UHGV virus genome: UHGV-1533542
DNA length: 30,878 nt
Reading direction: 5' to 3' (one strand)
DNA from: a virus
Each line of letters starts with the position of its first letter. Positions within the stretch are counted from its first letter, which is position 1. This document shows, piece by piece, positions 2,146 to 21,525 of this stretch. The notes under the pieces were generated by a model. It was not told the DNA's origin. It worked only from the letters and a program-made list of their open reading frames with translations, and did not search any database. The translations under genes were made by a program, and so were the position numbers.

Positions 2146-2628
2146 CTATCTTGTCAGGGTGTCATACTGTTTTTCGCAGACTCTTCCGGCTTCGGCTGCC
2201 CGGTCAGCATACTCTGCCAGTTGTCTGTTTCTCTCGAGAGATTTGCTGAGCACGTCGGCAAGCAAAACTCCGGTGTCTGCGGCTGACGTCCCAGCGCCGA
2301 CAATGGCGTTATACTGCCTGAGCTGCTCACGGATGGCAAAGAGTTGTTGCTGCAACCTGCCAGCGCGAGCGGCAGCATCAAGAGCATCATTGCGCGCCTG
2401 GTCGATTCTTTGCTGCGCTTCACGTTCATTGGTCACTTTCTCCTGTTCGTAGTACTGACGAACTTTGTCTTCTTCGTCTTTGCGGTCTTCTTCCGCCTGC
2501 GCATACCCGGCATCGTACTGGCGACTACCGTGTATATTCCAGGCAACCACTCCGACGATGAACAGAGCAGCAAGCATCACCACGATAACCAGTTGTTTCC
2601 AATATGCTTTTACGAATGCCCAGATCAT
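2146..2628 (-). CDS. Rz-like i-spanin
   Basis: ATG overlaps endolysin stop (ATGA); N-terminal TM helix ([18 protein letters not shown]) then charged coiled-coil domain; contains an embedded out-of-frame lipoprotein ORF; last gene of lysis cassette. Confidence 0.8.
2154..2390 (-). CDS. Rz1-like o-spanin (lipoprotein) embedded in Rz in another frame
   Basis: ATG at 2390 inside Rz; signal peptide with lipobox LAGC ([13 protein letters not shown]); short Pro-rich mature part; embedded arrangement as in lambda Rz/Rz1. Confidence 0.65.
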   Translation of the reverse strand: MMLLMLPLALAGCSNNSLPSVSSSGSITPLSALGRQPQTPEFCLPTCSANLSRETDNWQSMLTGQPKPEESAKNSMTP

Positions 2629-3254
2629 ATAGCCAGCACCTTACTGGCAGTGACGTACCGCGCGCGCCGGTCGTCGATGCCGTTCCGGCCACCATTGATA
2701 ATCAGAGTTACACGTACAATATCTCCGGTATACTTCATGCAGCCTTTGCTGGAGAAGAACCAGGCCGCGCTACGAGCCGCGTATTCGTCCTGTGCCAGCA
2801 GTTCAGGATTCTCCAGCAGGTCCACTTTCAGGCCGTTTCCGCAATCACGATAGTTATTCAAACCGGTAATCTGGATAAGTCCGCGGCCACGGTAATTCCA
2901 GCCATCGCCGGGGGCATTGTTCCCCATGCGTTTGCTGTACACCAGATTGGCAATCGCTCGCTGGCGCTCGAGTGGCAATGGTGGTTCACCAGCATGGCGA
3001 CCCAGTGCATTAGCCTGCCCCTGAGTGAGACGCCCAGCCCGAACGAAGTTAGCCAGTCCGCTGACACTGTAGTTGAAATTCTCCTGCAACCTGGTGAAGC
3101 CCCCAGACTCATGCCCGACTTGGGCAATAAACATTGCCTGATCTTCTGCTTTGCTGATACCAAACTCTTTCATCGCAGAAGTTATATGCGAGAACCAGCG
3201 TGCGGCCAGCGCCTCGCTAATACCAGCAGCTCGCTGGAATTGTTTAATCTCCAT
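2625..3254 (-). CDS. endolysin, glycoside hydrolase family 19 (chitinase-like lysozyme)
   Basis: Start at internal ATG 3254 (MEIKQF...), not the longer ORF from 3485; motifs [35 protein letters not shown] typical of GH19 phage endolysins (from memory); sits between holin-like genes and Rz. Confidence 0.88.
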
Positions 3255-3552
3255 GTTTAGACCTCGATATTTTGAAAATCTGAACAACGTTACCGCGTGT
3301 TTTAATAACCGCGGCAAGCATGACAGCGTTGATAATGACCTCAGATAAATCCACAGCCATTGGCGTGCGTAACCAGATTGCATAGACGACACGAACAGGA
3401 ATACTGGCCGCAGCAACAATAAGGAAATAAGCAAGCCACCCTCCCCATCTTCGATGTTGAGAGCCGTTACGCCGGAATGTGACAACGCGAATTGCTATGC
3501 CAGTACAAATAACTGCATTGGTGATAAGCAAAAAAAACTCATGCGTTACCAT
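3244..3552 (-). CDS. holin/antiholin-like small membrane protein
   Basis: 102-aa ORF with 2-3 hydrophobic helices, directly upstream of and overlapping the endolysin start; function assigned by position only. Confidence 0.5.
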
Positions 3553-3952
3553 CGTCTTTTCTCCCCGGAATTAAATCGCGTGGATTGTCTGAACGGTGGT
3601 AGAGCCATATACCAATACGCACAGCGACAATTGCTGACACGAATGCGCCAGCAGAGAAAACAATCCCTTTTTCAAAAGAGTCCTGCGTGATGGTAGGGAT
3701 CAGGCTGGCTATGCCGATAAGAATTGATGCTGCTGGTTTGTAGAAAAGAAGTCCACAGAGAAAGCTAAGCATCGATAAGAGTACGCGACGATGAATTGGG
3801 TACTCTACCGCAGAGGTAACAAAAATTACCGCACCAGCAAGAGCACCGAGCGCCACCTCTGGCGGAACGCCTACGATAACTGCAGCAAGAGAGCTCACAC
3901 TAAGCCATTGATTTAAAGAATCAGTAGTTAGATGGGCTGACATAATGAACAC
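3539..3952 (-). CDS. holin-like membrane protein (class I-like)
   Basis: 137 aa, about 3 TM helices and charged C-terminus ([19 protein letters not shown]); first gene of lysis cassette; start ambiguous (GTG 3952 or ATG 3943; a TAAGGAG lies about 20-29 nt upstream). Confidence 0.5.
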   Translation of the reverse strand: MFIMSAHLTTDSLNQWLSVSSLAAVIVGVPPEVALGALAGAVIFVTSAVEYPIHRRVLLSMLSFLCGLLFYKPAASILIGIASLIPTITQDSFEKGIVFSAGAFVSAIVAVRIGIWLYHRSDNPRDLIPGRKDDGNA

Positions 3953-4172
3953 CGTTTATTACGCATAACAATCTCCTTACTATTGAAGATTCACACATAA
4001 TAAACCATTTAAGGATAATAGTTACCTCAAAACGCTGTATTTCTACCTTCTACGGCAATGAAAATTTCGTTCAGAAAATGGTCTAGTGTACCTCTCAGTC
4101 ACAATTAAAGAAGAAAGAAGCCGAACTTACTTCGTAATAAGCAAGCCGGCTACTAAGATTAATCCTCAATAT

Positions 4173-6929
4173 TTAGCTACTTTCAAGCATTGCAAGACGT
4201 GATTCTATTTTTTCGATTCTTCTACGCAAATAAGCTGACTCAAGCCATAAACACTGGTCAGTACGGATACCCCACCTATTTCCAGCCTTGCAAACCAGAG
4301 TTCGCTCTTCTGTTTCGTATTCTTCTTCCATCTCAATTTCGACGCCATCCACAACTTTAGTGATCATCCTTACCGCCATCACTGGCGCGTATTTATCATC
4401 CCATTCATCGTAACAGAGAAGGCCAAATCTGGTTCCATCAATCCCATGCGCGAGGAAAGTGTCTCTCACTTGTTGTGCTATAACACCAAAATGCCAGCGG
4501 GCACCATCTCCCTTTTCCCTGACGGCATCAAGCCAGCGAAAAGCTACAATCCTGATATCTCCCCATGCATCCAGAATTGCATCACCTTCATAACCACGAG
4601 ACATATACAAGCTGAGCTCACTTGTACTAATCGGTTCACTTTTTTCTCTACCATCTGATGTGTTTATCGAACCGTTCGCAGAATAAACCTGTGCCCATCT
4701 AAATGATGGTGCACCAAGAGATTTGCTGTTATCAATAATTGGTGAAAAATTACCTTTAATGGCAATATTTCCAGAGTCGCCGAGTATATTAATAACTGCA
4801 GAGTCATCACCATGGTTTTTTACGCTTAAGTTTCTTGATGAAATATTTATATCTTTGTTATATCCACTAACATTAATCCATCTTTTACCATCAATGTGAT
4901 ACCCGTAAATATTTCCGTCTGATTGTTCGTCAGGTGACTCTCTAAGAACAATAGCATCTGCTCCAGACGACCATTGTATTTTTGTATCTGTAGGCCTCCA
5001 GTTCTTTATAATGAACGAACCATCAGTAAACTCCGTTTTTATTTGTCTATTGTCTACAAATGCGTCTCTTGGTTTAAACTCACTTGTGTTAACGCTGCTC
5101 TGAAGATCAGAAGCAAAAAATCTAAGATTTCCTGTATAACCCTGAGTCTCGGTCTTGTTATACGCAATCATAATTCCATTTTCAAACTCAGATGATGTTA
5201 TTTTAACATCACGGCAATCACCAAAAATGCAATTTCCTTTATCAAATGTTGTTTGAGCTTTGAATTTATCAAACCTTAAATTACGAACAGGGAAACCATC
5301 AACCTCTAATGCAAAGGATGCAGGAAGGCCAAAGTATTCTGATGGCTTACCTGATGTATGATCAAGAGTAGTGGCTACTGTATTCTCAAAAACAGTCCCG
5401 CTAAAATTATTACCAATTGACGGAAACCTGATTACACTTATTGTACCTTGTATTTCAGGAGAAATACCAGATAGTGTGATGTTAGCTCCATCAAATGATG
5501 CATCTGAATACGTATATACTGATTCACTGCCAGCAATTTTAAACTGTTTAACTGAAGTTATTCTCATCGACTTTTTATGTTTAAATGTCACTGAGCTTTC
5601 AGTATTACTTACAAGATCAATCTGAGGGCTATTCCTTATCGCGATCCCTGACTGGACATAAACGTTATTAAAGTGCGTTTTTTCAGGATTTCCCTTCATT
5701 GAAAGGCTCCCGTCATTTTCTGTCAGTAGTAGTCCTTTTACCCTCCAATAGCCGACAATCTGTACGTTATCAATAACTGAATCACAGCTATCGTATACAT
5801 GCAACCCTATATCCCAGTTATCACCCAATGAATAAGAATCAGGGTTATTGTATCCTTCAATACCATTTTTACTTACCATTATTCTCAGATTGCGTAACTG
5901 TGATGCCCTGTTGATACTAACAGCTACGCTCATGGCTTTTGGTGTAGCAGGAGTAACACCTACAGAATCTTCATTTGTAAACTCAGTGAACTTACAAGAT
6001 ATCCCTTCAACAATTTTAACTGGTCTTTCATTAGAGATGTTAAAAAAATATTTGTTTTTTTCTCCATCACCAGTAAATACAAGATGGGTTCCTTTACTCC
6101 AACTTTTTAATAATCTTTCAGGCGCTGGTCTATATGTATCCCAGTAATCAATTCCATCACCAATTAATGAAACTCCAGGAGGCACATCTATATTCTTAGA
6201 AATCATCCATTTACCTGCAGGTATTCTAACGACACTTGCACCAGAATTTATCGCATTAATTAACCATTCAGACGCATCAACTTCAAAATTTAATGCAGCA
6301 TATCTTTGCTCAAACGGAACAAAATCAAGAGCGTTAACGTTATCCCGCATCTTATCCTGGAACGTTCGGTATACTGCTCCAGAACCATACTGAATAAACC
6401 AACCAAAACCACCAATAACTCCGGCGATTGCAGCATCGACATAATTACGCATTGAGCGATTATTTACAGCGTCCTGCTCAAGTGATGGATCAGCAAGGTT
6501 AGATATTCTGTTTTGCTTTGCATCGTAATATTTTGCAAGCAAAGATGGTTTCATCAATGCACGTCTGAACCACCCAAAACATTGCTGGATCAGCATCGTC
6601 AGGTAGTCAAAAGCATCTTCATGCACTTCGGGGAAAAATTTACCCTGATTGCGAAGGTCTGTCTCCTGCACTACATCAAGCACACGATCTATCGTAATTC
6701 GCCATCCAGCAGCAAGCGGAGACGGAAGAACAACAGAACCGCCACTATAAGTGCCCGCCCCAGTTACCGTATAACCGGTATCCAGAACCAATTCTGTTAC
6801 GTTCCCGTTCAGGTCAGACACCTGAACAACCAGGTCGGATTTTTTGAAAATACGGAAGGTATACGGAAATGATGTCGTAGCGCCGTTACCAGTGTATTCG
6901 TTGTGGTCAACTTCGGTTGAGACCGTCAT
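4173..6929 (-). CDS. tailspike / tail fibre with depolymerase-type body and C-terminal intramolecular chaperone (peptidase S74-like) domain
   Basis: 918-aa ORF with SD GGAGA 6 nt before ATG; C-terminal ~160 aa match, from memory, the endosialidase auto-chaperone domain (S-D-G-R-E-K cleavage motif, DAWGD, HFGVIAQQVRD, C-terminal RRRIEKIESRLAMLE); central Asn/Ser/Gly-rich repeats consistent with a beta-helix. Confidence 0.88.
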   Translation of the reverse strand: MTVSTEVDHNEYTGNGATTSFPYTFRIFKKSDLVVQVSDLNGNVTELVLDTGYTVTGAGTYSGGSVVLPSPLAAGWRITIDRVLDVVQETDLRNQGKFFPEVHEDAFDYLTMLIQQCFGWFRRALMKPSLLAKYYDAKQNRISNLADPSLEQDAVNNRSMRNYVDAAIAGVIGGFGWFIQYGSGAVYRTFQDKMRDNVNALDFVPFEQRYAALNFEVDASEWLINAINSGASVVRIPAGKWMISKNIDVPPGVSLIGDGIDYWDTYRPAPERLLKSWSKGTHLVFTGDGEKNKYFFNISNERPVKIVEGISCKFTEFTNEDSVGVTPATPKAMSVAVSINRASQLRNLRIMVSKNGIEGYNNPDSYSLGDNWDIGLHVYDSCDSVIDNVQIVGYWRVKGLLLTENDGSLSMKGNPEKTHFNNVYVQSGIAIRNSPQIDLVSNTESSVTFKHKKSMRITSVKQFKIAGSESVYTYSDASFDGANITLSGISPEIQGTISVIRFPSIGNNFSGTVFENTVATTLDHTSGKPSEYFGLPASFALEVDGFPVRNLRFDKFKAQTTFDKGNCIFGDCRDVKITSSEFENGIMIAYNKTETQGYTGNLRFFASDLQSSVNTSEFKPRDAFVDNRQIKTEFTDGSFIIKNWRPTDTKIQWSSGADAIVLRESPDEQSDGNIYGYHIDGKRWINVSGYNKDINISSRNLSVKNHGDDSAVINILGDSGNIAIKGNFSPIIDNSKSLGAPSFRWAQVYSANGSINTSDGREKSEPISTSELSLYMSRGYEGDAILDAWGDIRIVAFRWLDAVREKGDGARWHFGVIAQQVRDTFLAHGIDGTRFGLLCYDEWDDKYAPVMAVRMITKVVDGVEIEMEEEYETEERTLVCKAGNRWGIRTDQCLWLESAYLRRRIEKIESRLAMLESS

Positions 6930-7033
6930 GTTAAATCTCCAGATAGTCGCAGCACCCGTTGCGCCGCATATCTGGTTATTCTATTACCTGAAAAACCATA
7001 TATGGATAGATAACCCATAAATACGAAAAGATA

Positions 7034-7048
7034 TTACCTTTCAGGTGA
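7034..7048. promoter_or_regulatory. ATTACC-N5-GGTAAT-type dyad, copy a (TTACC-TTTCA-GGTGA; one mismatch)
   Basis: Inverted repeat in the divergent intergenic region between tailspike start (6929) and the 85-aa gene; a partial copy (TTACCTGAAA) at about 6984. Confidence 0.5.
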
Positions 7049-7085
7049 TTTGCAAAACGTGCTGGATAGCAAACAAATTATTTGA

Positions 7086-7105
7086 TACTGTATATTTATA
7101 CAGTT
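7086..7105. promoter_or_regulatory. LexA (SOS) box
   Basis: TACTGTATATTTATACAGTT: CTGT-N8-ACAG with AT-rich spacer, 18/20 identical to E. coli consensus TACTGTATATATATACAGTA; 20 bp upstream of ATG 7125. Confidence 0.75.
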
Positions 7106-7124
7106 ATTGCATGGAGAAGATAAG

Positions 7125-7382
7125 ATGCAGCAGTATCACTATCCACTGGAAGACGGATTTACCGAAAGGATTCACACGCCGGGAGGCGTCAGGTCACTGG
7201 TGGAGGGATCGCACTTGATGAAATTACTCCGGGATCTCGATAAGGATGGATTTAATGTCGATGGCCCACTTGCCGAACTGACTGCACTGATTAACTACGT
7301 CACCAGCTCACAGATGTCTATGCAGGATCTGCAAACACATCTCGACTATTGTGCCGAACAATTACGAAAACAAACCCGGTAA
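7125..7382 (+). CDS. 85-aa protein preceded by a LexA box; paralogous to C-terminal domain of the Bro-N protein (antirepressor candidate)
   Basis: ATG with SD GGAGAAG; ORF opens at TTG 7107 but ATG 7125 preferred; by-eye alignment with residues ~148-228 of the 8528-9214 protein (HLMKLLRDLDKDGFNVDGPLAELT...DLQTHLDY vs LLMNLLNQLQEDGHDVSGAAAELT...DIQTHAEY). Confidence 0.65.
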   Translation: MQQYHYPLEDGFTERIHTPGGVRSLVEGSHLMKLLRDLDKDGFNVDGPLAELTALINYVTSSQMSMQDLQTHLDYCAEQLRKQTR

Positions 7383-7389
7383 ATTTAAA

Positions 7390-7405
7390 GGCCGCAAGAG
7401 CGGCC
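7390..7405. terminator. bidirectional hairpin terminator between convergent genes
   Basis: GGCCGC-AAGA-GCGGCC stem-loop with A/T-rich flanks, between the stop at 7382 (+) and the stop at 7405 (-). Confidence 0.5.
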
Positions 7406-8133
7406 TATCGTTTCGCTTTGTGCTCATCCCAGCACGTTTTGCACCATGCCATTAAGCCGTCCGCATTTTGATTATTAGGGTAAAAGCTGGTTCGTTTTCT
7501 GCGGACATTACAAATTGGGCACCACTTCATATGGCGTGTATTCTTTGGGCCATCGAGACACCTTGCACACCACTTAGTCAATCCATCTGGATTTTTTGAC
7601 GATTTCCTGAATTTTTCATATGGAAGGTTTATTCTGCATCGCAAGCACTGCTTGCTACCACTTGAAACTCTGTTAGCTGATTCTTCTTTTGGCGGCGATG
7701 CAGAAGGTATTCTTGCTGGCTCTGATACTGCCTGAGGTGCTTTTTTAGATGACTGAGACGATATGTCATCACCAGGGAATCTTCCATGATATGCCGGACG
7801 CGTTGACACTCCAGGTGGAAGCTCAGCTGTAAACGGCTTTGGCTGAATCAGTTGCCTCTCTTTTGCTAACTCCTGCTGTTTATAATATGTCTGGATTACC
7901 GCACTATCATAAGCAGGAGGTGCGGAAATATTAGGCGCATTACCTCCAGTTTTTTGAAACTGAGTAGAGGTGTGTTCTATCACCTGTGTACGATTAATCG
8001 TTATCTCCCCATCTTCGGTCTTTATCGTTTTGTTATGATTAACGACCGTACGATCAGAGATCTTAGTCTTGTTCTGGTTGATAACGTAAATAATCACCGC
8101 AACCACACCAACAACTATCCAGAAAACTTCCAT
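7405..8133 (-). CDS. membrane-anchored protein with C-terminal tandem zinc ribbons, function unknown
   Basis: SD GAGGA 6 nt before ATG; N-terminal TM helix (VFWIVVGVVAVIIYVI); Pro/Ser-rich linker; C-terminal Cys cluster CLRC...WCARC...WCPIC...WCKTC (two CxxC-N~20-CxxC units). Confidence 0.7.
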   Translation of the reverse strand: MEVFWIVVGVVAVIIYVINQNKTKISDRTVVNHNKTIKTEDGEITINRTQVIEHTSTQFQKTGGNAPNISAPPAYDSAVIQTYYKQQELAKERQLIQPKPFTAELPPGVSTRPAYHGRFPGDDISSQSSKKAPQAVSEPARIPSASPPKEESANRVSSGSKQCLRCRINLPYEKFRKSSKNPDGLTKWCARCLDGPKNTRHMKWCPICNVRRKRTSFYPNNQNADGLMAWCKTCWDEHKAKR

Positions 8134-8153
8134 TGCTTTTCCTCACAATAACA

Positions 8154-8168
8154 TTACCTTAAAGGTAA
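8154..8168. promoter_or_regulatory. ATTACC-N5-GGTAAT dyad, copy b (perfect; TTACC-TTAAA-GGTAA)
   Basis: Perfect inverted repeat about 20 bp upstream of the RBS of minus-strand gene 7405-8133, in the divergent region shared with the Bro-N gene; weaker related site CTTGCTTTCAGGTGA at 8172-8186. Confidence 0.55.
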
Positions 8169-8246
8169 TATCTTGCTTTCAGGTGATCAAGCGTTAAACG
8201 CAATCAACCAAATACGGTTGATTTTAATATTTCTTCGCGTTTATCA

Positions 8247-8261
8247 TTACCTTTGCGGTAA
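8247..8261. promoter_or_regulatory. ATTACC-N5-GGTAAT dyad, copy b3 (TTACC-TTTGC-GGTAA)
   Basis: Perfect TTACC-N5-GGTAA inside the long 5' region of the Bro-N gene. Confidence 0.5.
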
Positions 8262-8527
8262 ATTTACATCGCACTCCTCTTGTGCCATAGTAATCGGGCA
8301 CTGGATTTTGCCAGTGCCGGGATTGGCGTCCCGGGTTACTACAGAGGCACATATGCCGCATAAGCGGTTTTTTTATGTGTAAAGCGCACCTATTCTATGG
8401 TGGGCTGTGTGGGGGCACCGAAAGGTGCGCCGGGTCCTTTGTAGCCGGTTACGCCAACCCTGCACAGTTCACCACCAACCGATTGGCGTCGGTAGTGGTG
8501 ATTAACCTAACTACAAAGGTGATCACT

Positions 8528-9214
8528 ATGACTGCTAACGTAACCCCATCTGTTTTTCATTTTGAATCAGAGGCAACCATTCGAGCCATTGTTATTGATG
8601 GAAATCCTTGGTTTGTTGCCAAAGACGTTATTAAAGCTCTTCAACTGACAAACCCCACTATGTCAATAAAATCTCTTGATGATGATGAAAGGGCTAAATT
8701 TAACTTAGGCCGTCAAGGCGAAACCAATATTATCAACGAGTCAGGCCTCTACACACTGATCCTCCGCTGCCGCGATGCGGTGACACCAGGCACTATCCCC
8801 TACCGCTTTCGTAAATGGGTTACAGGTGAGGTTCTTCCTCAGATCCGCCGCACCGGAAGTTACATTAAAAACTCGCTCCCGCAGGAAGAACGCATAAAGA
8901 TGGTTGCCGACCAGGTAGCCAACGCCACGGCGTCAGCAGTAATGCAGGCGATGAAGATAGAGAACAAAACCTACAGTGCCCCGCTGAAGCCCGGCTACCG
9001 CAGCCTGATTCACTCGCCGTCTGGTGTTCTCGGCCTGACGGAGAACTCACTGCTGATGAATCTGCTGAACCAGTTACAGGAAGACGGGCACGACGTATCG
9101 GGCGCGGCGGCAGAGCTGACCACCATGTTCTGCTACATCGTCGGTGTGAGCAAATGCCTGCGTGATATCCAGACGCACGCGGAGTACATCAACGACAAAG
9201 CAGGATTCTTCTGA
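8528..9214 (+). CDS. Bro-N domain protein (phage antirepressor-like) with C-terminal domain paralogous to the 85-aa protein
   Basis: ATG 8528 with SD AAGGTG chosen over the RBS-less ATG 8375; N-terminal Bro-N signature (FHFESEATIRAIVIDGNPWFVAKDVIKALQL); hairpin with weak T-tract after stop. Confidence 0.85.
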   Translation: MTANVTPSVFHFESEATIRAIVIDGNPWFVAKDVIKALQLTNPTMSIKSLDDDERAKFNLGRQGETNIINESGLYTLILRCRDAVTPGTIPYRFRKWVTGEVLPQIRRTGSYIKNSLPQEERIKMVADQVANATASAVMQAMKIENKTYSAPLKPGYRSLIHSPSGVLGLTENSLLMNLLNQLQEDGHDVSGAAAELTTMFCYIVGVSKCLRDIQTHAEYINDKAGFF

Positions 9215-9223
9215 CAGAACGGC

Positions 9224-9247
9224 GGCACATGGATGTGCCTTTAAATA
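9224..9247 (+). terminator. possible intrinsic terminator after the Bro-N gene
   Basis: GGCACA-TGGA-TGTGCC hairpin followed by TTTAAATAATT; T-tract is weak. Confidence 0.35.
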
Positions 9248-9287
9248 ATTCTGTACAGATTGCAGACTGTTGGTGAATAGCGTACTA

Positions 9288-9302
9288 TTACCTCAAGGGT
9301 AA
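9288..9302. promoter_or_regulatory. ATTACC-N5-GGTAAT dyad, copy d (TTACC-TCAAG-GGTAA)
   Basis: Perfect TTACC-N5-GGTAA about 60 bp upstream of the small ORF / toxin-like gene pair. Confidence 0.5.
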
Positions 9303-9362
9303 ACGGATTGGTTTCATTTTTATTAATCCGTGTAATGAACTTATGAGATATGAGGTAATGTC

Positions 9363-9542
9363 ATGCGAAACGAAAAATTGCAGATGCGTAGAGCGCAAGC
9401 TGCCGCAAGACGTTCTTTCAATGGAAGCGTAGAGTGCGTAAAAGTTACTATGACAAAAGATCACGCAAGTCGCGTATCCCGCGCTTTCTTTGATTCTCGT
9501 AACAATAAGGAAAATTATGAGTTCGTCTGCGTCGCAGAATGA
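9363..9542 (+). CDS. small ORF (59 aa) upstream of and overlapping the toxin-like gene; antitoxin candidate
   Basis: ATG 9363 preceded by SD GAGG (gaggtaatgtcATG); basic 59-aa product; overlaps next gene start by 26 nt in another frame; below the ORF-track size cutoff; coding status unproven. Confidence 0.3.
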   Translation: MRNEKLQMRRAQAAARRSFNGSVECVKVTMTKDHASRVSRAFFDSRNNKENYEFVCVAE

Positions 9543-10062
9543 TAAAAATCAAATTGTCAGATATAAGGGTCGAGTATTGCATACGCAAAATTTCTCGGCC
9601 CTTTGTGCATCTGATCTTGAGCTGAAGAAAGTATCTGATGCCTTTACCCAGTATTGGAAAACGGGATACCATCCATCTCTTGGTAAAGATGCTGCATTTG
9701 CTCGTCCGACAGAAATGCTTAAACTAAATGTCAGGCATACTCATGTCGATAACCAAGACTATATTCCAGAAGATAGTGATAAAAAACACACTGGTAAAAA
9801 ATCATCTTGGGATGCATGGAAAAATATAGCGTCTGTGCAAGTAAAATGCATACCAACAAGTGATTGCTTTTTAGTTTATTCGGTAAATCACAATCGTGAT
9901 GCGCTGGTTATGTTTTTTGTTGACGCAGATGCCCACAACATAACTGAGCAAGAAGAGTTTAAAGAGGCAGCAATCACTATCAGTTATCAATTCTTTGAGA
10001 AAACAAAAACAGAACCAATGCCTTTAGAAGAAGATCTTTTTTCTGATAAATGGAAGGAATAA
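9517..10062 (+). CDS. 181-aa protein with YafO-like toxin features (candidate mRNA-interferase-type toxin)
   Basis: ATG 9517 with SD AAGGA (ORF opens at TTG 9490); by-eye similarity to my recollection of E. coli YafO (F.QY.K.G..P..GKDA, L.V.HTHV, F/HLVY...AL....D..H); strong terminator follows. Confidence 0.6.
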   Translation: MSSSASQNDKNQIVRYKGRVLHTQNFSALCASDLELKKVSDAFTQYWKTGYHPSLGKDAAFARPTEMLKLNVRHTHVDNQDYIPEDSDKKHTGKKSSWDAWKNIASVQVKCIPTSDCFLVYSVNHNRDALVMFFVDADAHNITEQEEFKEAAITISYQFFEKTKTEPMPLEEDLFSDKWKE

Positions 10063-10148: not shown

Positions 10149-10160
10149 GTGACATGTCAC
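10149..10160. repeat. perfect 12-bp palindrome GTGACATGTCAC, copy i
   Basis: Exact palindrome between the stop of the 46-aa ORF and the minus-strand terminator; identical copies at 27433-27444 and 29698-29709. Confidence 0.8.
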
Positions 10161-10167: not shown

Positions 10168-10308
10168 TTATGACAAGCCTATGTACCCTGCTACACCAGA
10201 TAATATCAAAATAACTGCAACAGCAAATTCGCCATCGTCAATGATACATTTACGGTTCATAACGCCAAGTGCAACAAGCGCAAACACAACAAGAATAAAA
10301 GCAATCAT
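10168..10308 (-). CDS. 46-aa two-helix membrane micropeptide, last gene of the virion operon
   Basis: ATG 9 nt after the stop of the 824-aa gene with SD AAGGA; product MIAFILVVFALVALGVMNRKCIIDDGEFAVAVILILSGVAGYIGLS has two hydrophobic segments; not in the ORF track (below size cutoff). Confidence 0.45.
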   Translation of the reverse strand: MIAFILVVFALVALGVMNRKCIIDDGEFAVAVILILSGVAGYIGLS

Positions 10309-10317
10309 TTCTCATCC

Positions 10318-12792
10318 TTATTGCGGAGTGACATCCTGTGGTCGCCACCAGTATGTCTGGTTAAACTCTTTCTTCGAACGTTGCTCCATTTTACGCAAAT
10401 AGCCTGGTGAAAAATACTCCTGCATCTGGTTAAAGATCATGTGATCGAGAGCCGCCTTTAAGTACCAGAGATTCGCACCTGGCATCAAACCTTTCCCCAG
10501 CTTCACCAGATCACCACCAGTCTGCTCACTCTTCCCTTCCACAGCATTTAACGGTATGCCCTGAGCAATCTTCACTACGTCATCAACCAGACCAGCTACC
10601 GGGCCAAGCATCGACGCCAGCGCGCCGCTTCCGTACCTAGTGTGATCTGACAATAAAAAGTCACCGTAAAGGCCAAGACCACCACCTTTCAGTAGAGCAC
10701 CAAGCCAAAATTTAGCAGCATCTTCTCCTGTCATCTCGCGAGGATTACGACCAGACGCAAGGTCGTTAAGTTGCTGCGACAAAGCGCCAAGAATGGTCGT
10801 ACTGGCAATAAACGTCGCAATATATGCCGCACGCCCACCAGCAGACGGCATACCCATAGCGCGTGACCAGTGACGCATAACTACCGAGATAGGGAACGAT
10901 TTAAACAGGAAAACACTTCTCGTTAATTCACCTTTCCATGTTCCACGCTGAATACCAGAACCGGTTATCAGTTGCTCACGTGCTCCCGGTGTAATAACAG
11001 CCATATCAACTTCTTCAGTTACGGCACCGAGAAGTTTACGCATTGCCTCAAATTTCACGCGTTCAGGCTCACCAAGATGTTTAACTGCTGAATCAGGGAT
11101 ACGCATAATGCTTTCCGGTGTCAGCATCGTATTATTGCCGTTCCCCCAGTCCTCCTGTTGCGCCAGCTTCCATACGCTCCAGTCTGTTTCAGTAATCCCT
11201 TTGCTTTTCAGGATACGAAAATCAGAGTCATCGAGGCTACGAAGGTCTGGTGTCCGTGACACTACCTCTCCCAGGCTTCCCATCATTGTTACGCCATAGG
11301 CGCGCTTGTGCGCATCTGACCATGCTGTAAGCCCACTGGCACGCATTACCGCCGTTGCCGCCCAACGAGACACAGACGGCCCCATATTATCCATTGCCCA
11401 GCGGTTAACACTGCCAAGTAGAGATTCCATCGCCAGACCAGCGCGGCGCGCCCGCGCAAGCTCAGTACGGTTCGTTGGGTCCATAGCTTCAAGCTGGTTG
11501 CGGAATAACTGGTTCATTGGAAGGTTGGTCACCTTCGCAGACAGATACATGGTTCCAAGATCAGAGAACGATGACAGCAACGCGGATCCTAGTCGGCTGG
11601 CAACCAGCCAGTTGCGGATATTGTCAGACCAGCGCGCGATGTGCGGATTCGCTACAGGCTGTGTCTTTCCGGAAATAAAGTTGTACAGATTCTCTGTGTT
11701 GTTCGCCAGCCGCTCGACTTTACCGGTTTTACTCGGGTTAGCTGTTGCCGTTTCTGCCTTCACCTGATCAAGAAGAGAGCGGAAAACATGATCGGGGTTT
11801 GGGCCATATGTTTCCACCAGTGCAATATCTTTACTGATACCTTCCAGGTGACCGACCATGATTTCCCATAGAGAGCGATCGCCATAAAGTTGCTGATATT
11901 GCAGATAGGAATCTGCATCTTTGAAATGTATCTGTCGTGATGCATTACCCCGGTTAGCACGTGCGCCGGAAATTCGCATTCCGGTATCAGTAAGCTTATT
12001 CAGCCCACCAGTAGCGATCGTGTTATAAGCCTCTCCAAGAAATGCAGACAACTCGGCATCGTTCATCAGTTGTCCATCGACTCGGGTATAATATTTGCGA
12101 TCCAGCTTACCTATAACATCGCTAACCCACTTATCCTTTGATACCGCCCCAACCTTTTCCATAGAATGATGTTGAGGGATCCCCCAGTTTTCGAGATAGC
12201 CAATGTCCCCACCAGCATCATTAAACCGGCGGCGCAGTAGCTCTGTCACTTCTCTCCACGCCTTAGCACCTTTTCTTGCTTTAGCATTGCCAGTATTTTG
12301 CCCTCGCATTTCATATACCAGGTCACGCACGCCAGCTTCATCTTCAAACAGGCCAAAAAAGCGAGGATCAACTGCTTCAAATGCCTCCTGCAATTGACTC
12401 AATGCATAATCACGAGTGGCTTTTGTTCTGGATTCAACAGAGAGGAAATTCGATTTACCGTCTGCATTAAAAGCAATAGTACGGTTAAGAGCGCCAAGTT
12501 TCCCATCAGCCCCTTGATAGCTATTGATAAATTTATCCAATCTCTGACGTGCGGCTATAGTGAGAGCCACACGACGTTTCTTTAATGCCGCTTCTCGCTG
12601 TAATTCTTCAGATGCCAATTGTGCTGCACGATACAACCGTTCTGATTCGGAAAGTTGTCGCCACGACATCGGATCATCACGAGCAATGGAGCGCATATTT
12701 CGATAAATGCGGTCTTCAATGTTCTGTATTTCTCGCGCCGTTAACGTGCGCTGCGCCGCCTGCTGGACCGCTTGTATACATTCCTGTCTCAT
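10318..12792 (-). CDS. large internal virion / ejection protein (824 aa)
   Basis: Long ORF in the virion operon; position equivalent to internal core/ejection proteins of podoviruses; function by position only. Confidence 0.75.
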   Translation of the reverse strand: MRQECIQAVQQAAQRTLTAREIQNIEDRIYRNMRSIARDDPMSWRQLSESERLYRAAQLASEELQREAALKKRRVALTIAARQRLDKFINSYQGADGKLGALNRTIAFNADGKSNFLSVESRTKATRDYALSQLQEAFEAVDPRFFGLFEDEAGVRDLVYEMRGQNTGNAKARKGAKAWREVTELLRRRFNDAGGDIGYLENWGIPQHHSMEKVGAVSKDKWVSDVIGKLDRKYYTRVDGQLMNDAELSAFLGEAYNTIATGGLNKLTDTGMRISGARANRGNASRQIHFKDADSYLQYQQLYGDRSLWEIMVGHLEGISKDIALVETYGPNPDHVFRSLLDQVKAETATANPSKTGKVERLANNTENLYNFISGKTQPVANPHIARWSDNIRNWLVASRLGSALLSSFSDLGTMYLSAKVTNLPMNQLFRNQLEAMDPTNRTELARARRAGLAMESLLGSVNRWAMDNMGPSVSRWAATAVMRASGLTAWSDAHKRAYGVTMMGSLGEVVSRTPDLRSLDDSDFRILKSKGITETDWSVWKLAQQEDWGNGNNTMLTPESIMRIPDSAVKHLGEPERVKFEAMRKLLGAVTEEVDMAVITPGAREQLITGSGIQRGTWKGELTRSVFLFKSFPISVVMRHWSRAMGMPSAGGRAAYIATFIASTTILGALSQQLNDLASGRNPREMTGEDAAKFWLGALLKGGGLGLYGDFLLSDHTRYGSGALASMLGPVAGLVDDVVKIAQGIPLNAVEGKSEQTGGDLVKLGKGLMPGANLWYLKAALDHMIFNQMQEYFSPGYLRKMEQRSKKEFNQTYWWRPQDVTPQ

Positions 12793-12797
12793 TTAAT

Positions 12798-14600
12798 TTA
12801 ACCTCTCAAGAAACACGCCACAGCAACATCAAACAGGCTGGAATCCTGTATTGCCTGCTCACTTTCCCTGTTCGCTTCATCCAGTACTTCACGCGCACTG
12901 CGCGATTGTGGATTACCATCATCATCCAGCACGGTGATTATCATGTCCGGAGATTCAAGCAGCGAGTCTTCAGCTATACGCAGATCAATATCTCCTGCCG
13001 GATCTGCCATCATTTTTTGTTCTGTCTGTTGCAATATCTTACCGGGCTCAAAAGGAGCTACTTCGTCTGGCGTCCTGACCTCTGCTGTTTTATAGAATGA
13101 AACAGCCTGAGCATTAAGTTCACTTTCAGCCTGCTGTCTCCGTGCCAGTTCTGCTCGAGCTTCAAAAAACTGACCGCCAGGCTCATGCGGTGCCAACGCG
13201 TTACGGGAAAATTCCAGGCGTTCTTGTGCCTGCCGGATTCGTTGGTCAATATCGCGAATTCTGGCCTGTTTATCTGATCGAGCACGAGACAAAGCTTTAC
13301 CGCTACCAGTTGGCTCTTCTGCAAGAATTTGTGCGCGCTGTTCAGTGAGATTGTCGATAATTCGTTGGCTATTAGCGATTTCAGACTGGTAAACCTGTCT
13401 ATCGCCACGCGACAAAAGCTGCGCGGCCTGTTCTTCAAGCAACCGATTTTCTATAGCGCGCGCCGTTTTTCCATCATCTACAGATGACAGAGCCTCATTA
13501 ACTGCCTGAGAAAGCAGACTCTTGTGCCCAGGGATTTCACTGAAAGATGCAGACTCAACAATGCTGGCAACGTCTACAGGTCTCCCCTGGCTAACATCAG
13601 ACATGGCTTTTCGCAGAGCCTGAATGTGAGAATTACGCGAAAGCACGTTGATCGGCACGCCAGGAGCAATATCAATTTCAGCATGATGAGCGGCATTCGC
13701 CGCCAGTGCAGCATCGATATCAACTGGTGAAAAATTTGGTGCGCTTGTAGACTCGCCGCGAGAGTTAATAAATCTGCCGACACCACCAAACGCCACCCCA
13801 AGAACAGCATCAATAGCAATTGCCTGTCGATCCAACACATCATACTGGTTAGCCATTTCGCTATAGCCACCATCACGAAGCGTTTTTGCAGTAAGCCCAC
13901 GCTGTGCCATACCGAACGCAATATTTGTACCTGCGGCATAGGCAATATCTGGCGTTGCACGTACTGCTGTTGCTGCGGCGCGTCGCACTGAACTCTCACC
14001 CGTCCGCGCAAGCTGAGCCGCCACACCTTCCGCCAGCGCACCACCAGCACGTAACCCGAGGCTCATAGGGATCAGTGTTCCGGCACCAGCAGTAATGCCC
14101 TGCACTAATCCCGCTTCCTGCGCCGTCCTGAAATCAACACCCTGTGCTATCAGCCGTTCAAACTCAGAAAAACCCTGTAGCGAAGTTACCGCCGCTGCAC
14201 CTCCGACAGGACCACCGAGCGTTGTACCGACAACAGCCTGCCCGCCCATATCGAACAACCCATAAAGAACCTGCCCGGCGGTTCCGGTTGTCGCGGCATC
14301 AGGCGTCAGCCGCTTAACCTGCTGCTCTGCTAGTTTTCTCTGCTCGGCAATGTATGAAACTGAAGTATCATTGAGCGAGGTGTTTTCGTTAATAAACTGA
14401 GCAATCGGGGATACGATTTTATCCATCCCAGCCCATAGCAACTGATCTGGCTTTGCCACCAGCCCGGAGTACAAACCAGACAATGCCGCTCCTACAGCAT
14501 TGTCGAAAAAACCAACATCGCTGTTAAAGCCCGCTGGATTTGATGCTGCTTCGTCAAGTTGCTGATTCTGGTTTACTGGATTAAGGCCAAAGTAACTCAT
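12798..14600 (-). CDS. internal virion / ejection protein (600 aa)
   Basis: ATG overlaps upstream stop (ATGA); Gly/Ala-rich N-terminal part and charged helical C-terminal part. Confidence 0.75.
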   Translation of the reverse strand: MSYFGLNPVNQNQQLDEAASNPAGFNSDVGFFDNAVGAALSGLYSGLVAKPDQLLWAGMDKIVSPIAQFINENTSLNDTSVSYIAEQRKLAEQQVKRLTPDAATTGTAGQVLYGLFDMGGQAVVGTTLGGPVGGAAAVTSLQGFSEFERLIAQGVDFRTAQEAGLVQGITAGAGTLIPMSLGLRAGGALAEGVAAQLARTGESSVRRAAATAVRATPDIAYAAGTNIAFGMAQRGLTAKTLRDGGYSEMANQYDVLDRQAIAIDAVLGVAFGGVGRFINSRGESTSAPNFSPVDIDAALAANAAHHAEIDIAPGVPINVLSRNSHIQALRKAMSDVSQGRPVDVASIVESASFSEIPGHKSLLSQAVNEALSSVDDGKTARAIENRLLEEQAAQLLSRGDRQVYQSEIANSQRIIDNLTEQRAQILAEEPTGSGKALSRARSDKQARIRDIDQRIRQAQERLEFSRNALAPHEPGGQFFEARAELARRQQAESELNAQAVSFYKTAEVRTPDEVAPFEPGKILQQTEQKMMADPAGDIDLRIAEDSLLESPDMIITVLDDDGNPQSRSAREVLDEANRESEQAIQDSSLFDVAVACFLRG

Positions 14601-17110
14601 TGCGGAATATCTCCGGAGAATCTCTGACGCTTCTGTGTCAGATCAAGAACAACAGGAGAACCATCATCTTTCAGCAGATAACCAGTACCAAGTTTCACCA
14701 GGTACTGACTATCGCCGTAACTTTGCAAACCATACTGACCAGGCGGTGTTTTTATCCCGGTGCCGACAACTTGTTCATTCCAAGCCTGATTAACCTGCTT
14801 ATCGAATTGCTCTGCAGACATTCCCCACGGCAAAAGGACATTCCCCATTCCGTTATAGTCATGCACGCCACCTGTAGCTACGTTAACAGCCTGTTTCCAG
14901 ATATCAGTGTCAATTTCGCCTGATATCACGCCTTTTTTCGCCATCACACCAGCGTAATAGTCCTTTGCGATCTCGTATGCCATTGATGCCCCCTGAGCAT
15001 CACCAGCAAATGCATCCTTCACCATGTCAGAAAACTCAAGGCGAAGATCAGCATCTTTAGGCATCGGAATACCTTTCGCATCATCAGTACCTTTACGAGC
15101 CGCCGCGCCAGCAAGAATTGTCTGCGCAGCGGTTTCAGGAGACACGGAAACATCCGGATTAAACCAGTTTTTTTCTGCCAAAATACCACCAGGCTTGTCC
15201 ATCAGTATCCCGGCAACGGCAGCAGATGGAGCGTTGGCACTGATCTGCTGTAGTGCTGACATATACACCTGCCCACCACCAGTGCTCTGCCTGATGGTAT
15301 CGAGATATGCTGCCTGTTGAGAAACTGGAGCATCACGAAAGAAAACACCGATCTGATTGGCCTCGTCTTTGGAAAAGAACGTCAGTGGAGTGCCATATGA
15401 CTTAGCAAGGTCACTGACCTGAGCGGCACGCAAGGCAACGCTATGTCCAAAGTTATCCTTATTGCTCATGTCGATAGGCTTTGCCTGTCCGGAGGCAAGA
15501 GAGAACTGCACAGGATCCGACTGCCGCTGCTTTATCACCTGATTTGCAGCCGAAACAACGTTGTCATAAAGAGCTGCGCGAGACGCATAACCCTCCCCTG
15601 TCTCACCAGTATCCGGGCGTAATTGCTCAACATATGCTGTAATGCTGCTTGTCGGCATGTTGCGGAAAGAGCCTATATACTGTCCGGCGATCTGCGTATT
15701 CTTAAACTCGGTATATCGCAGGTTTCCTTCTCTGACTCCATAAGCTGCAATAAAATCATCCTCACCAGGTGGGTTAGGAAATTCAACGCCACGCATATAC
15801 GCAGCTGTCGCATCGCGAACCTGGCTGTCAATCATCGTTTTATATTCATCCTGCTGCTGCCGACGCAGTTGATCCGCCTGTCGCATAAAACTTGCCTGCG
15901 CCTCAGAAGATGCCGCATCGAATGCTGCATTACCGGTATAGCGTTTGGTGTTGGTTGGAATTGTTGATAAACCAAGTGCTGCACTGACACCAGCAGTTAA
16001 CTGCTGATCACTGTATGGCTGGCTACCGTTCTCATGATGGATAATGGCTGCACAAAGCGCCTTCAGGGTATCAGGATTTGATGCATCGAGAGGCTCATCA
16101 GCAGAAACGCCAAGTTGTTCGCACACTGCTTTGATATACGACATAGTGTCATTTTTATCAGTGGGCGGTGCCCAGCGATTAATTATCTCGCTGACGGTAT
16201 CAATACCCTGCCTATGATACGACATCAGGTTCCGCCCTAATGCACGAATCCCGTGTTCAGGTGTTTCGAATTTAGCAAATCGACCATCATCACCGGTCTG
16301 GCCTACCCACGGATTAGTTTTGCTGTATTCGAGATTTCCTGGGTTATTGTTGCGTATGCCACGGGCACGATCGGAAGAGTCACTATCGGCTACAGCACGG
16401 CGAGCTCCAGCAGCAGTATCACTTAACTCGCCATTACTTTGGATGAATGCGGTCGCATTGTTTGCCGACCACTGGGACAATGCGGCATCAGCAACCTTCT
16501 CTTTAAACTCGATTTTCTTGGCCTGGATTTGCTCGTCGCTCCAGCCATGCGCAATGCCGTAATCCTCAATTTGCTGGAAAGTTTGCTTATTAGCCAATAC
16601 GTATGCGGCGTTGTCGCCATACAATGCTGCGGCATTTTTACCATTGTTCAGCAGCGTAGCCTGAAACTGACCTTCTTCGTAGGCATTTATTTGCCCTATC
16701 TCGTGCCGCCCGGCCTGCGTAGTGAACTGAATACGCTGCTGCTGCGCCTGCTGCATGAAAGCATTACGAGCCTGTTCATCCGGCAGCGACATAGCCAGTT
16801 GTTCGACCTGAGCATCAAACTGCTGCGTATACTCCTGACCTTTTCCAATAGCATTTTTCCCTTTCAGGTTAAGCAAACCTGTTTCAGGGTTATTCAGCAG
16901 ATCGCTGCTTATCTGGCTTAAGCTAAGAGAAGCATCCTGAGCCATAGCAACATTCGCGCGCTGTTTTGCCTGCGCAATAATACCTGCATATTGCTCTGCA
17001 ACATCGCCAAGTACATCACCGACATTTGGTGTCTGAAACGATGAGAATCCCTGCGTCGAAATCCCTCTGCTCTGAACCTGACGGCCCGATGTTGTTGGTA
17101 CAACTGGCAT
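14597..17110 (-). CDS. internal virion / ejection protein (837 aa)
   Basis: Long ORF in the virion operon; contains a conserved-looking NNPGNL segment whose function I cannot assign. Confidence 0.75.
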   Translation of the reverse strand: MPVVPTTSGRQVQSRGISTQGFSSFQTPNVGDVLGDVAEQYAGIIAQAKQRANVAMAQDASLSLSQISSDLLNNPETGLLNLKGKNAIGKGQEYTQQFDAQVEQLAMSLPDEQARNAFMQQAQQQRIQFTTQAGRHEIGQINAYEEGQFQATLLNNGKNAAALYGDNAAYVLANKQTFQQIEDYGIAHGWSDEQIQAKKIEFKEKVADAALSQWSANNATAFIQSNGELSDTAAGARRAVADSDSSDRARGIRNNNPGNLEYSKTNPWVGQTGDDGRFAKFETPEHGIRALGRNLMSYHRQGIDTVSEIINRWAPPTDKNDTMSYIKAVCEQLGVSADEPLDASNPDTLKALCAAIIHHENGSQPYSDQQLTAGVSAALGLSTIPTNTKRYTGNAAFDAASSEAQASFMRQADQLRRQQQDEYKTMIDSQVRDATAAYMRGVEFPNPPGEDDFIAAYGVREGNLRYTEFKNTQIAGQYIGSFRNMPTSSITAYVEQLRPDTGETGEGYASRAALYDNVVSAANQVIKQRQSDPVQFSLASGQAKPIDMSNKDNFGHSVALRAAQVSDLAKSYGTPLTFFSKDEANQIGVFFRDAPVSQQAAYLDTIRQSTGGGQVYMSALQQISANAPSAAVAGILMDKPGGILAEKNWFNPDVSVSPETAAQTILAGAAARKGTDDAKGIPMPKDADLRLEFSDMVKDAFAGDAQGASMAYEIAKDYYAGVMAKKGVISGEIDTDIWKQAVNVATGGVHDYNGMGNVLLPWGMSAEQFDKQVNQAWNEQVVGTGIKTPPGQYGLQSYGDSQYLVKLGTGYLLKDDGSPVVLDLTQKRQRFSGDIPQ

Positions 17111-17122
17111 CTTATTATCCCC

Positions 17123-17662
17123 TTATCGACCGGTTGGAGTGCCAACAGCAGCAGAAATCGGCGCAGCCTTCTGAGAGAACGGGCTCCACGTTCCGCCGCC
17201 CATCTGGTATGCACCGTATGCTTTTAGTGGTGCCGTTAACAAAGTGCTGGTCATCGATGATTTAGCAGCCGACTGAGCAGCAGCCCCCTGTGCCTGAGCA
17301 TTCATTCCCTGAACCTGATACCCATATGCCTCACGCTGAGCATTATTCACTGTCGTTAACGCATCAAGAGTGCCGAACTGAGCATTATCCGCAAAAACGT
17401 CAAGAGCTGTTCCGCTACTTAATTCCGCACCGGTAGCCCCCATAGTGGCCGCCGCAGTGCCTGAGCGTTGACGCATTTCACGACGACGCTGATCCGCTTC
17501 AATATTCCCACGATTGATTGAATCCTGTGCCTGAACTTCAGCAATTTCAGCATTCCGATCAGCTATGGCTGACTGGTATTTTGCCTGCTTGCTCTGGCTG
17601 TACATTGACGCGGCTGTGGATGCCACTGTGACGGCAACCAAAGCGATGGCTGGGTTACACAT
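17123..17662 (-). CDS. virion protein with N-terminal hydrophobic segment (179 aa)
   Basis: ATG overlaps upstream stop (TAATG); N-terminal hydrophobic helix then Ala/Gln-rich region. Confidence 0.7.
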   Translation of the reverse strand: MCNPAIALVAVTVASTAASMYSQSKQAKYQSAIADRNAEIAEVQAQDSINRGNIEADQRRREMRQRSGTAAATMGATGAELSSGTALDVFADNAQFGTLDALTTVNNAQREAYGYQVQGMNAQAQGAAAQSAAKSSMTSTLLTAPLKAYGAYQMGGGTWSPFSQKAAPISAAVGTPTGR

Positions 17663-18126
17663 TATTTTCTCTCCATGTGAAATCTGTGGAAATTAAGACC
17701 AAGAGCACCATAAGGCGCGGCTTCTTCAAGCCTGAATCCAAGCCAGTGCAGCCATGCTTTGGCAACATGGTTTCGCTCGTCGACGTAGTTTTCCAGGCGC
17801 GGATAAACTGCCAGCATCTGCTGCAATACAGGGCGGCAGTGGCGAAGAAATGTCTTCTGATATTTTTCAATACGGCTGGTTCCGACCAGCCATGGCGTAC
17901 CATTGCCACCGATCATTGACGCCGGAGATACACCAAACATGGTTACCAGTTCTCCGTTCGCGAACCCTGACCAGGCCATAGTCGCAGTGCGCAGACCAAC
18001 GCGCAGCGCATCTTCGGTAGTCATCAGCGATACCGCATACAGTTCGTCAATATCAGCCTGACGAACATCCGGCAAAATCATCTGAAGATGCTCTTCGGTA
18101 GCGGGAATAATTCGAACATCGATCAT
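17662..18126 (-). CDS. virion-module protein (154 aa), function unknown
   Basis: ATG overlaps upstream stop (ATGA); translationally coupled within the tail/internal-protein operon. Confidence 0.7.
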   Translation of the reverse strand: MIDVRIIPATEEHLQMILPDVRQADIDELYAVSLMTTEDALRVGLRTATMAWSGFANGELVTMFGVSPASMIGGNGTPWLVGTSRIEKYQKTFLRHCRPVLQQMLAVYPRLENYVDERNHVAKAWLHWLGFRLEEAAPYGALGLNFHRFHMERK

Positions 18127-21202: not shown

Positions 21203-21525
21203 CACTCACCTCCGTTACCGTACAGAGTTTCAGCCGCTGATTTTTCTACATCCCTGGAAACAGGAGCGATCGCCATATCAGTGATCTGCAGATCGGCGCT
21301 GCGATTAACACCATCGTCAGTTTCTCTGGCAGACAGGCCTCGAATAACAGCCTTTGCAGTTATCATCACTTCTGTTCCGACGCCCTGAGGTTGCGCCTTC
21401 AGCTTATTCAATGTGTCGTTATTAAGAGTGATGCACAGCTCCCACGGGTATTCATCGCGAGTTCTGGTTTCTCCGCTCTCATCCTGGTAGCTGTCAGTGC
21501 CGGTTTTGAGGTTTACGAGTTCCAT
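21202..21525 (-). CDS. small virion-module protein (107 aa from ATG 21525)
   Basis: SD AGGAG 5 nt before ATG 21525 (ORF opens at GTG 21531); preceded by hairpin 21542-21559. Confidence 0.6.
   Translation of the reverse strand: MELVNLKTGTDSYQDESGETRTRDEYPWELCITLNNDTLNKLKAQPQGVGTEVMITAKAVIRGLSARETDDGVNRSADLQITDMAIAPVSRDVEKSAAETLYGNGGE

Follow-up and report, generated by a model that had tools for sequence, protein, structure and literature searches.

A dispersed 17-bp palindrome in a Uetakevirus prophage of Escherichia coli as the predicted operator of the prophage repressor Rep

The DNA considered here (UHGV virus genome UHGV-1533542; 30,878 nucleotides, hereafter the window) matches the chromosome of Escherichia coli strain 85.0412 at 100% identity and carries the host genes yfgG-yfgI followed by most of a ~40-kb prophage inserted between yfgI and guaA. 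The prophage belongs to the genus Uetakevirus (epsilon15/phiV10/TL-2011b type). Lysis, tail-fibre, virion, head and terminase genes and a variable region of small genes lie in the window (Table 1), and the end of the early-right operon comes after terS; the immunity region, recombination genes and int are situated past the right end. The subject of this report is a palindrome that recurs through the prophage, TTACC-N5-GGTAA, which most probably serves as the operator of the main prophage repressor, Rep.

A motif scan of the whole window finds perfect copies of the dyad at 8154-8168, 8247-8261, 9288-9302, 26394-26408 and 29605-29619, and copies with one mismatch at 7034-7048 (TTACC-N5-GGTGA), 29587-29601 and 3805. 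A first-pass annotation, made by a model from the sequence alone, had placed the dyad at five sites with correct coordinates and had overlooked the pair at 29587-29601 and 29605-29619, which are 18 bp apart directly 5' of the small-terminase start. The additional partial copies that it listed are both weak: the one at 6984 does have an ATTACC half-site but no full dyad, and the one at 8172 (CTTGC-N5-GGTGA) has three mismatches. Its view that the motif is not random is borne out by 100 dinucleotide-preserving shuffles of the window, in which 0.00 perfect copies are expected; with up to one mismatch, eight copies are observed against 0.48 expected. A second background, 130 kb of the same host chromosome, has no perfect and eight one-mismatch copies, whereas the 39.75-kb prophage has 10 perfect and six one-mismatch copies. 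Only one of these 16 prophage sites falls in real coding sequence and the other 15 lie outside it, in an element that is 91% coding; the sole exception, at 3805 within the holin gene, is probably a chance occurrence.

The same motif is widespread among relatives of the prophage. Six Uetakevirus genomes were compared (this prophage, phiV10, epsilon15, SPC32H, Enterobacter phage Tyrion and Klebsiella phage BUCT711), and an unbiased count, for each genome, of every dyad composed of a 5-mer, a spacer of 0-12 nucleotides and the reverse complement ranks TTACC-N5-GGTAA first in all six, with 8-11 perfect copies in each. The consensus of 81 sites from these genomes defines the complete unit as a 17-mer, ATTACC-WWWWW-GGTAAT, in which ACC/GGT is invariant apart from one exception. 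Site layout is also kept at orthologous intergenic regions of the six genomes, which come from four host genera: a pair 18 bp apart before terS, single sites before the gp3/portal operon, between ant and the tail-fibre gene and before int (the latter always with GGTATA), one 62-bp pair downstream of rep and another after the replication genes, and a rep-cro cluster with spacings of 48 bp or 17+30 bp. Each genome has two pairs whose centres are 62 bp apart (63 bp once in the Klebsiella phage), and closer pairs, at 17-18 bp, are found at terS and within the rep/cro cluster.

In the epsilon15 RefSeq record (NC_004775.2), seven ATTACC-N5-GGTAAT sites, with half-sites identical to those of the palindrome described here, are labelled 'protein_bind' in connection with a repressor and lysogeny. 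They include orthologues of the window sites at 29605 before terS (12-27 in epsilon15), at 26394 before gp3 (2931-2947) and at 7034 between ant and the tail fibre (19895-19911). The assignment of the motif to a repressor is already on record for Uetakevirus, and both the motif and its kind are already known. Literature searches for the motif string returned nothing relevant, and the paper on phage vB_EcoP_ZX5, in which the same repressor and anti-repressor were studied, defines no operator.

The prophage outside the window has eight further sites that depart from the motif at no more than one position and one with two mismatches, numbered here in extended window coordinates (Table 1). The first-pass annotation had expected the gene for the binding protein in an immunity region beyond the window, and rep is found there, ~5 kb past the right end, with five to six more copies of the dyad around it; the sites from 35692 to 36514 flank rep and a divergent cro-like gene. 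The prophage Rep is 100% identical to phiV10 p40 ('putative transcriptional repressor'), 42-43% identical to epsilon15 gp38 and SPC32H Rep, and can be aligned end to end with the SPC32H repressor of known crystal structure (PDB 5D50). A Pfam scan of Rep gives helix-turn-helix (HTH)-type matches only and no S24 peptidase domain, the domain of RecA-dependent autocleavage. In the N-terminal domain, the stretch NLVNRW-x2-G-x-K-x-IG is invariant in five Reps that are otherwise 43-78% identical to the prophage protein, which fits an unchanged operator. Secondary descriptions of SPC32H Rep (PMC9638917; PMC9986798) report N-terminal DNA-binding, middle dimerisation and C-terminal tetramerisation domains, binding to palindromic DNA as a tetramer, and disassembly of Rep by a tetrameric anti-repressor, Ant.

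Every site discussed in the window (7034, 8154, 8247, 9288, 26394 and the terS pair) overlaps a predicted sigma-70 core promoter, in one of three arrangements. In type A, the AT of ATTACC provides the last two bases of the -10 hexamer and the operator covers approximately -8 to +9. This register, which is the same in relatives, is seen at 8246-8262 (predicted promoter P1, TTGATT at 8218-8223, spacing 18, TATCAT at 8242-8247), at 9287-9303 (TTGCAG at 9260-9265, spacing 17, TACTAT at 9283-9288, driving orf59-yafO) and, on the minus strand, at 29604-29620, where an extended -10 (TGgTACTAT, 29627-29619) precedes the second operator and the terS ATG. Type A also covers a PL-like promoter (TTGACA-17-AATCAT) and a post-replication promoter (TTGATT-17-TTTAAT) beyond the window; the fusion of a -10 of the form NNNNAT to TACC recurs at all five of these promoters and is kept across genomes. 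In type B, the operator fills the spacer, as at 7033-7049 in the minus-strand tail-fibre promoter (TTTGCA at 7056-7051, spacing 17, TATCTT at 7033-7028) and, outside the window, in the PR-like and int promoters, with the int variant GGTATA creating the -10 TATACT. In type C, the left half-site is itself the -10 (TACCTT). This applies to 8153-8169 on the minus strand (TTGATC at 8190-8185, spacing 17, TACCTT at 8167-8162), driving the 242-amino-acid (aa) gene, and to 26393-26409 on the plus strand, where a consensus -35 (TTGACA, 26372-26377) precedes TACCTT (26395-26400) by 17 bp; the latter promoter is also present in epsilon15 and points at tRNA-Arg and the 140-aa gene. All three arrangements would predict occlusion of RNA polymerase by Rep. 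Transcription is predicted to start at ~8254, ~8298, ~9295 and ~26407 on the plus strand and at ~8155, ~7021 and ~29612 on the minus strand, and all of these starts, with the potential exception of ~8298, would be inactive before induction.

At terS, the RefSeq coding sequence (28991-29665, minus strand) starts at TTG 29665 and encloses an intrinsic terminator (29656-29639) and both operators. Translation from ATG 29587 gives a 198-aa TerS, the length of the epsilon15 protein, and this ATG is the probable true start, which places both operators upstream of the gene. A stoperator or roadblock function for this pair was considered and set aside, as alignment shows the first operator to be joined directly to an extended -10 (TGnTACTAT) that is conserved. 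Two further observations concern individual operators. The ~320 bp between the operator at 26393-26409 and tRNA-Arg(TCT), 26410-26730, have no annotated gene; the equivalent region of epsilon15 is annotated as an RNase III processing site, and the predicted Rep-controlled promoter TTGACA-17-TACCTT would transcribe it. In the post-replication operator (33346-33362, extended), the spacer and right half double as a Shine-Dalgarno sequence (ATTACCTAAGGGGTAAAtcATG), with a start codon 2-3 nt 3' of the operator in all six genomes.

The variable region holds the components of an induction switch. The ant gene, labelled 'hypothetical protein' in RefSeq, encodes an 85-aa orthologue of SPC32H Ant and is divergent from the tail-fibre gene, in the same gene order as in SPC32H. 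Between the -35 (TTGATA, 7082-7087) and -10 (TATTGC, 7105-7110) of its predicted promoter lies a canonical LexA box, which the first-pass annotation overlooked although it stands beside the site at 7034; that operator ends 33 bp 5' of the ant -35. Equivalent LexA boxes adjoin ant in epsilon15, SPC32H and Tyrion. An Ant homologue divergent from the tail fibre, a LexA box on the predicted ant promoter and a repressor devoid of an S24 domain, as in the SPC32H-type Rep-Ant-LexA switch, are thus all present here. Further along, a Bro-N domain protein has a C-terminal Ant domain and also matches PHROG anti-repressor families; its domain content marks it as a predicted second anti-repressor, not an operator binder. 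An RNA like the Hfq-binding isrK RNA and a C4 antisense RNA in tandem form the leader of its gene (8298..8479); the C4 RNA would share a transcript with the anti-repressor gene behind it, a layout resembling the c4-ant module of P1 immI.

The most probable binder of the dyads is Rep, the main repressor of this epsilon15/phiV10-type prophage, which is non-cleavable; we give this operator assignment a probability of about 0.9. This reading is favoured because the counts are far above chance, the sites are intergenic and overlap predicted promoters, the motif is annotated in epsilon15 and conserved genus-wide, Rep is homologous to SPC32H Rep, and Ant and the LexA box are present in the window. 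The data themselves give the occurrence, statistics, positions and conservation of the sites, along with the homologies of Rep and Ant; physical binding, promoter identity, the direction of regulation, cooperativity and feed-forward are what we infer from them. The earlier proposal of promoter-proximal operators for one phage-encoded oligomeric HTH protein agrees with this reading. Its further suggestion that the accessory genes, or morons, form one co-regulated regulon is too narrow, as the predicted regulon is the whole prophage: the sites are not restricted to accessory genes, since the one at 7034 serves the tail-fibre promoter, those at 29587 and 29605 serve the terS promoter, and others serve early, replication and int promoters.

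Several points weigh against the assignment to Rep. Promoters were assigned by consensus scoring only, and several are weak (no more than 8 of 12 hexamer positions). The epsilon15 site annotation may itself be a computational prediction. An operator 5' of the holin/lysis cassette in phiV10, epsilon15, SPC32H and Tyrion was not found in the corresponding interval here (3944-4172), which keeps only a GGTAAC half-site at 4026-4021 on the minus strand. At two places the effect is ambiguous, as the operator lies upstream of a core promoter and occlusion is not its sole possible effect. One is 8246-8262, which abuts the -35 of a predicted promoter P2 (TTTACA at 8263-8268, spacing 17, TGc-CATAGT with CATAGT at 8286-8291); the P2 start would coincide with the 5' end of the isrK match, and the operator centre is near -44 of P2. 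The other is 26393-26409, ~58 bp 5' of the start that a weak but conserved candidate promoter would give the minus-strand gp3/portal (head) operon. Finally, a cro-like gene adjoins rep in all six genomes and its product may bind the same sites.

This last point leads to the most serious competitor, in which the cro-like protein (76 aa, divergent from rep) would be the main or only binder of the dyads, as a lytic repressor. It matches a PHROG 'transcriptional repressor' family (E=5.6e-13), and Cro and CI share operators in lambda-type switches. A lytic repressor is not expected, however, on late, tail-fibre and cargo promoters, which are needed during lytic growth, and the epsilon15 annotation has the sites bind the lysogeny repressor. 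Shared binding by the cro-like protein at the rep/cro cluster is likely, whereas a main or exclusive role is improbable. Somewhat less probable still is that the dyads are module-boundary or recombination linkers without a regulatory role. Homology does break at operator edges (34 of the 60 sampled E. coli matches diverge at 9300-9307, and the phiV10 break lies at 8257), but features of a regulatory kind are seen in the fixed register to -10 and -35 hexamers, the clustering at rep/cro and the conserved 62-bp pairs, and a boundary role could be a by-product of the operator being the last conserved element before variable cargo.

Recognition by a host regulator is very improbable, and the first-pass annotation had already judged that the dyad is not a LexA-, CRP-, FNR- or Fur-type site, with which we agree. 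One candidate is a site of MqsA type: the copies at 7034, 8154 and 26394 read ACCT-N3-AGGT, which we take to resemble the MqsA palindrome. This sequence was rejected as the conserved core, as it is present in only 19 of the 81 family sites and TTACC/GGTAA in nearly all; moreover, the 130 kb of host DNA lack perfect copies, and the motif stays with the phage in all four host genera. The dyad was also tried as a LexA box and rejected because it does not have the CTGT-N8-ACAG pattern, the true LexA box at 7088-7103 being separate. The Bro-N protein (8528-9214), named by the first-pass annotation as another potential binder, is hardly credible in this role. Its gene is located among the sites and Bro-N domains are thought to bind DNA, but the 10-11 perfect sites of epsilon15 and SPC32H occur in genomes that lack a Bro-N gene, and the C-terminal Ant domain would be expected to target Rep rather than DNA.

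With Rep as the binder, a mechanism can be proposed. Rep tetramers would occupy ~15 operators at the -10/+1 region, spacer or -35 of nearly every sigma-70 promoter, including the early left, early right, post-replication, int, late (terS), tail-fibre and cargo-cassette promoters, and promoter occlusion would keep the whole prophage silent. The conserved 62-bp (~six helical turns) and 17-18-bp pairs suggest cooperative binding, in which one tetramer may hold two operators. DNA damage would remove LexA from its box and allow Ant to be made; by homology with SPC32H, Ant would bind Rep and release it from DNA, and all operators would open together. The isrK/C4-Bro-N::Ant operon (8246-9214) would thereby be opened and may reinforce the switch in a feed-forward manner.

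Known systems provide a context for this arrangement. The closest are epsilon15 and SPC32H (PDB 5D50/5D4Z), which share identical half-sites, the same site layout, homologous Rep and Ant, and a LexA box by ant. Unlike them, this prophage has the phiV10 allele of Rep, only 42-43% identical to theirs, is missing the lysis-cassette operator, carries extra cargo with operators (the 242-aa gene and orf59-yafO) and encodes, behind isrK/C4 RNAs, a second Ant that is fused to Bro-N. As in lambda, a cluster of two or three operators separates rep from the divergent cro-like gene, and one site is centred near -44 of a second promoter, similar to the placement of CI at OR2 for PRM. In contrast to lambda-type CI operators, the sites are not confined to OL/OR but dispersed over ~40 kb, Rep lacks the S24 autocleavage domain, and induction would proceed through an anti-repressor. 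In P1, the operators of the C1 repressor are dispersed over the genome, and the immI region consists of the c4 antisense RNA, icd and ant. The prophage resembles P1 in having one primary repressor with ~15 or more operators over all transcription units, and a C4-type RNA ahead of an anti-repressor gene whose promoter has the primary repressor's operator. It differs in that P1 operators are asymmetric 17-mers and C1 is unrelated to Rep, whereas the sites here are palindromes for a predicted HTH tetramer and induction is predicted to run through a LexA-controlled Ant. Many sites across the genome, beyond the immunity region, are also described for mycobacteriophage L5 gp71 and the L1 repressor (PMC1934351). 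Those sites are asymmetric and orientation-dependent and block elongation inside transcription units; the sites here are palindromic and overlap predicted core promoters, unlike L5 gp71-type stoperators.

Two cargo cassettes of the variable region, the 242-aa gene and orf59-yafO, are specific to this prophage and TL-2011b, and each has a Rep operator on its predicted promoter. Both are consequently predicted to be silent in lysogeny, and the operator on cargo promoters may be a mildly new point. The C-terminus of the 242-aa protein has weak endonuclease VII and Lar-like matches, and within the phage collection its gene occurs in TL-2011b only; a PADLOC scan of the cargo proteins gave no matches. 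Break points of homology fall at operator edges. Homology with phiv142-3 stops directly after the operator 9287-9303, and 34 of 60 E. coli matches, a spread sample of 470 matching records, lose homology at 9300-9307 and have different cargo beyond. Homology with phiV10 resumes at 8257, within the operator 8246-8262, whose 5-bp spacer is inverted between the two (TTTGC versus GCAAA). These break points, the single specificity across the genus and the conserved 62-bp pairs may likewise be mildly new.

A broader reading, which we regard as doubtful in its entirety, combines three ideas: that the operators are portable promoter-operator slots, that their specificity is frozen genus-wide, and that Rep loops the prophage. 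Within it, the presence of one palindrome in ~15 promoters may freeze immunity specificity across the genus, as suggested by half-sites shared between phages of E. coli, Salmonella, Enterobacter and Klebsiella despite Reps that are only ~43% identical, and the downstream edge of the operator may be a preferred break point for swaps of cargo (yafO, the 242-aa gene and others). If this were true, new cargo would automatically be silent in the lysogen and on at induction, and the prophage would be looped by tetrameric Rep that bridges the 62-bp pairs and perhaps sites further apart.

Other elements of the prophage merit mention. RefSeq treats the tail-fibre gene as a pseudogene, yet its open reading frame of 918 aa (4173-6929) is uninterrupted. 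A different palindrome, perfect over 12 bp (GTGACATGTCAC), has three copies in the window: at 10149-10160 just 3' of the last late gene, at 27433-27444 3' of terL, and at 29698-29709 at the end of a gp49-like gene ahead of the terS terminator. It is present at all three places in epsilon15 (where it is unannotated), SPC32H and BUCT711 and at two in phiV10 and Tyrion, and it may be the site of a second regulator.

Table 1. Features of the prophage in the window and, in extended window coordinates, beyond its right end
Feature	Position	Strand	Evidence or remark
Lysis genes	2146-3943	-	
Tail fibre	4173-6929	-	
Variable region	7.0-10.1 kb		
Rep operator, predicted	7033-7049	.	One mismatch; ATTACCTTTCAGGTGAT
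LexA box	7088-7103	.	CTGTATATTTATACAG; in spacer of predicted ant promoter; outside the dyad family, part of the same switch
ant, 85-aa anti-repressor, SPC32H Ant orthologue	7125-7382	+	PDB 5d50_E, E=4e-47, residues 2-84
242-aa cargo gene	7405-8133	-	Hydrophobic N-terminus (by eye), Cys-rich C-terminus
Rep operator, predicted	8153-8169	.	ATTACCTTAAAGGTAAT
Rep operator, predicted	8246-8262	.	ATTACCTTTGCGGTAAA
isrK-like RNA	8298-8374	+	Rfam RF01394, 56.7 bits, above gathering score
C4 antisense RNA	8393-8479	+	Rfam RF01695, 79.5 bits, above gathering score
Bro-N domain protein with C-terminal Ant domain	8528-9214	+	Pfam Bro-N, E=5e-20; 5d50_E, E=1.1e-13, residues 147-223
Rep operator, predicted	9287-9303	.	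ATTACCTCAAGGGTAAA
Two-gene cassette: 59-aa open reading frame and YafO-family toxin homologue	9363-10062	+	Pfam YafO_toxin, E=1.1e-5, just above cutoff; RefSeq annotation
Virion and head genes	10168-26303	-	
Rep operator, predicted	26393-26409	.	ATTACCTTTCAGGTAAC
tRNA-Arg	26731-26807	+	
140-aa gene	27006-27428	+	
terL and terS	27519 to ~29587	-	
Two predicted Rep operators, 18 bp apart	29586-29620	.	29604-29620 perfect, 29586-29602 one mismatch
Two sites, 62 bp apart	33347 and 33409 (extended)		Between P-like replication gene and next operon
Site	35355 (extended)		After cro-like gene
Three sites	35692, 35723 and 35740 (extended)		Between cro-like gene and rep; 35723 has two mismatches
Two sites, 62 bp apart	36452 and 36514 (extended)		Between rep and left early operon
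Site	41768 (extended)		42 bp 5' of int
rep, 194 aa (WP_000836290.1)	L002 20430-21014		5d50_A, E=4e-42

The analysis reveals no new kind of regulator. It suggests that the small genes at 7.0-10.1 kb are not classical morons expressed in the lysogen: because their predicted promoters carry the operator of the prophage repressor, the YafO-type toxin cassette, the 242-aa protein and Bro-N::Ant should remain off during lysogeny and be expressed after induction or upon infection. The resulting list of predicted Rep-controlled promoters could be used for phiV10-type reporter phages and for the ~1000 E. coli genomes with related prophages.

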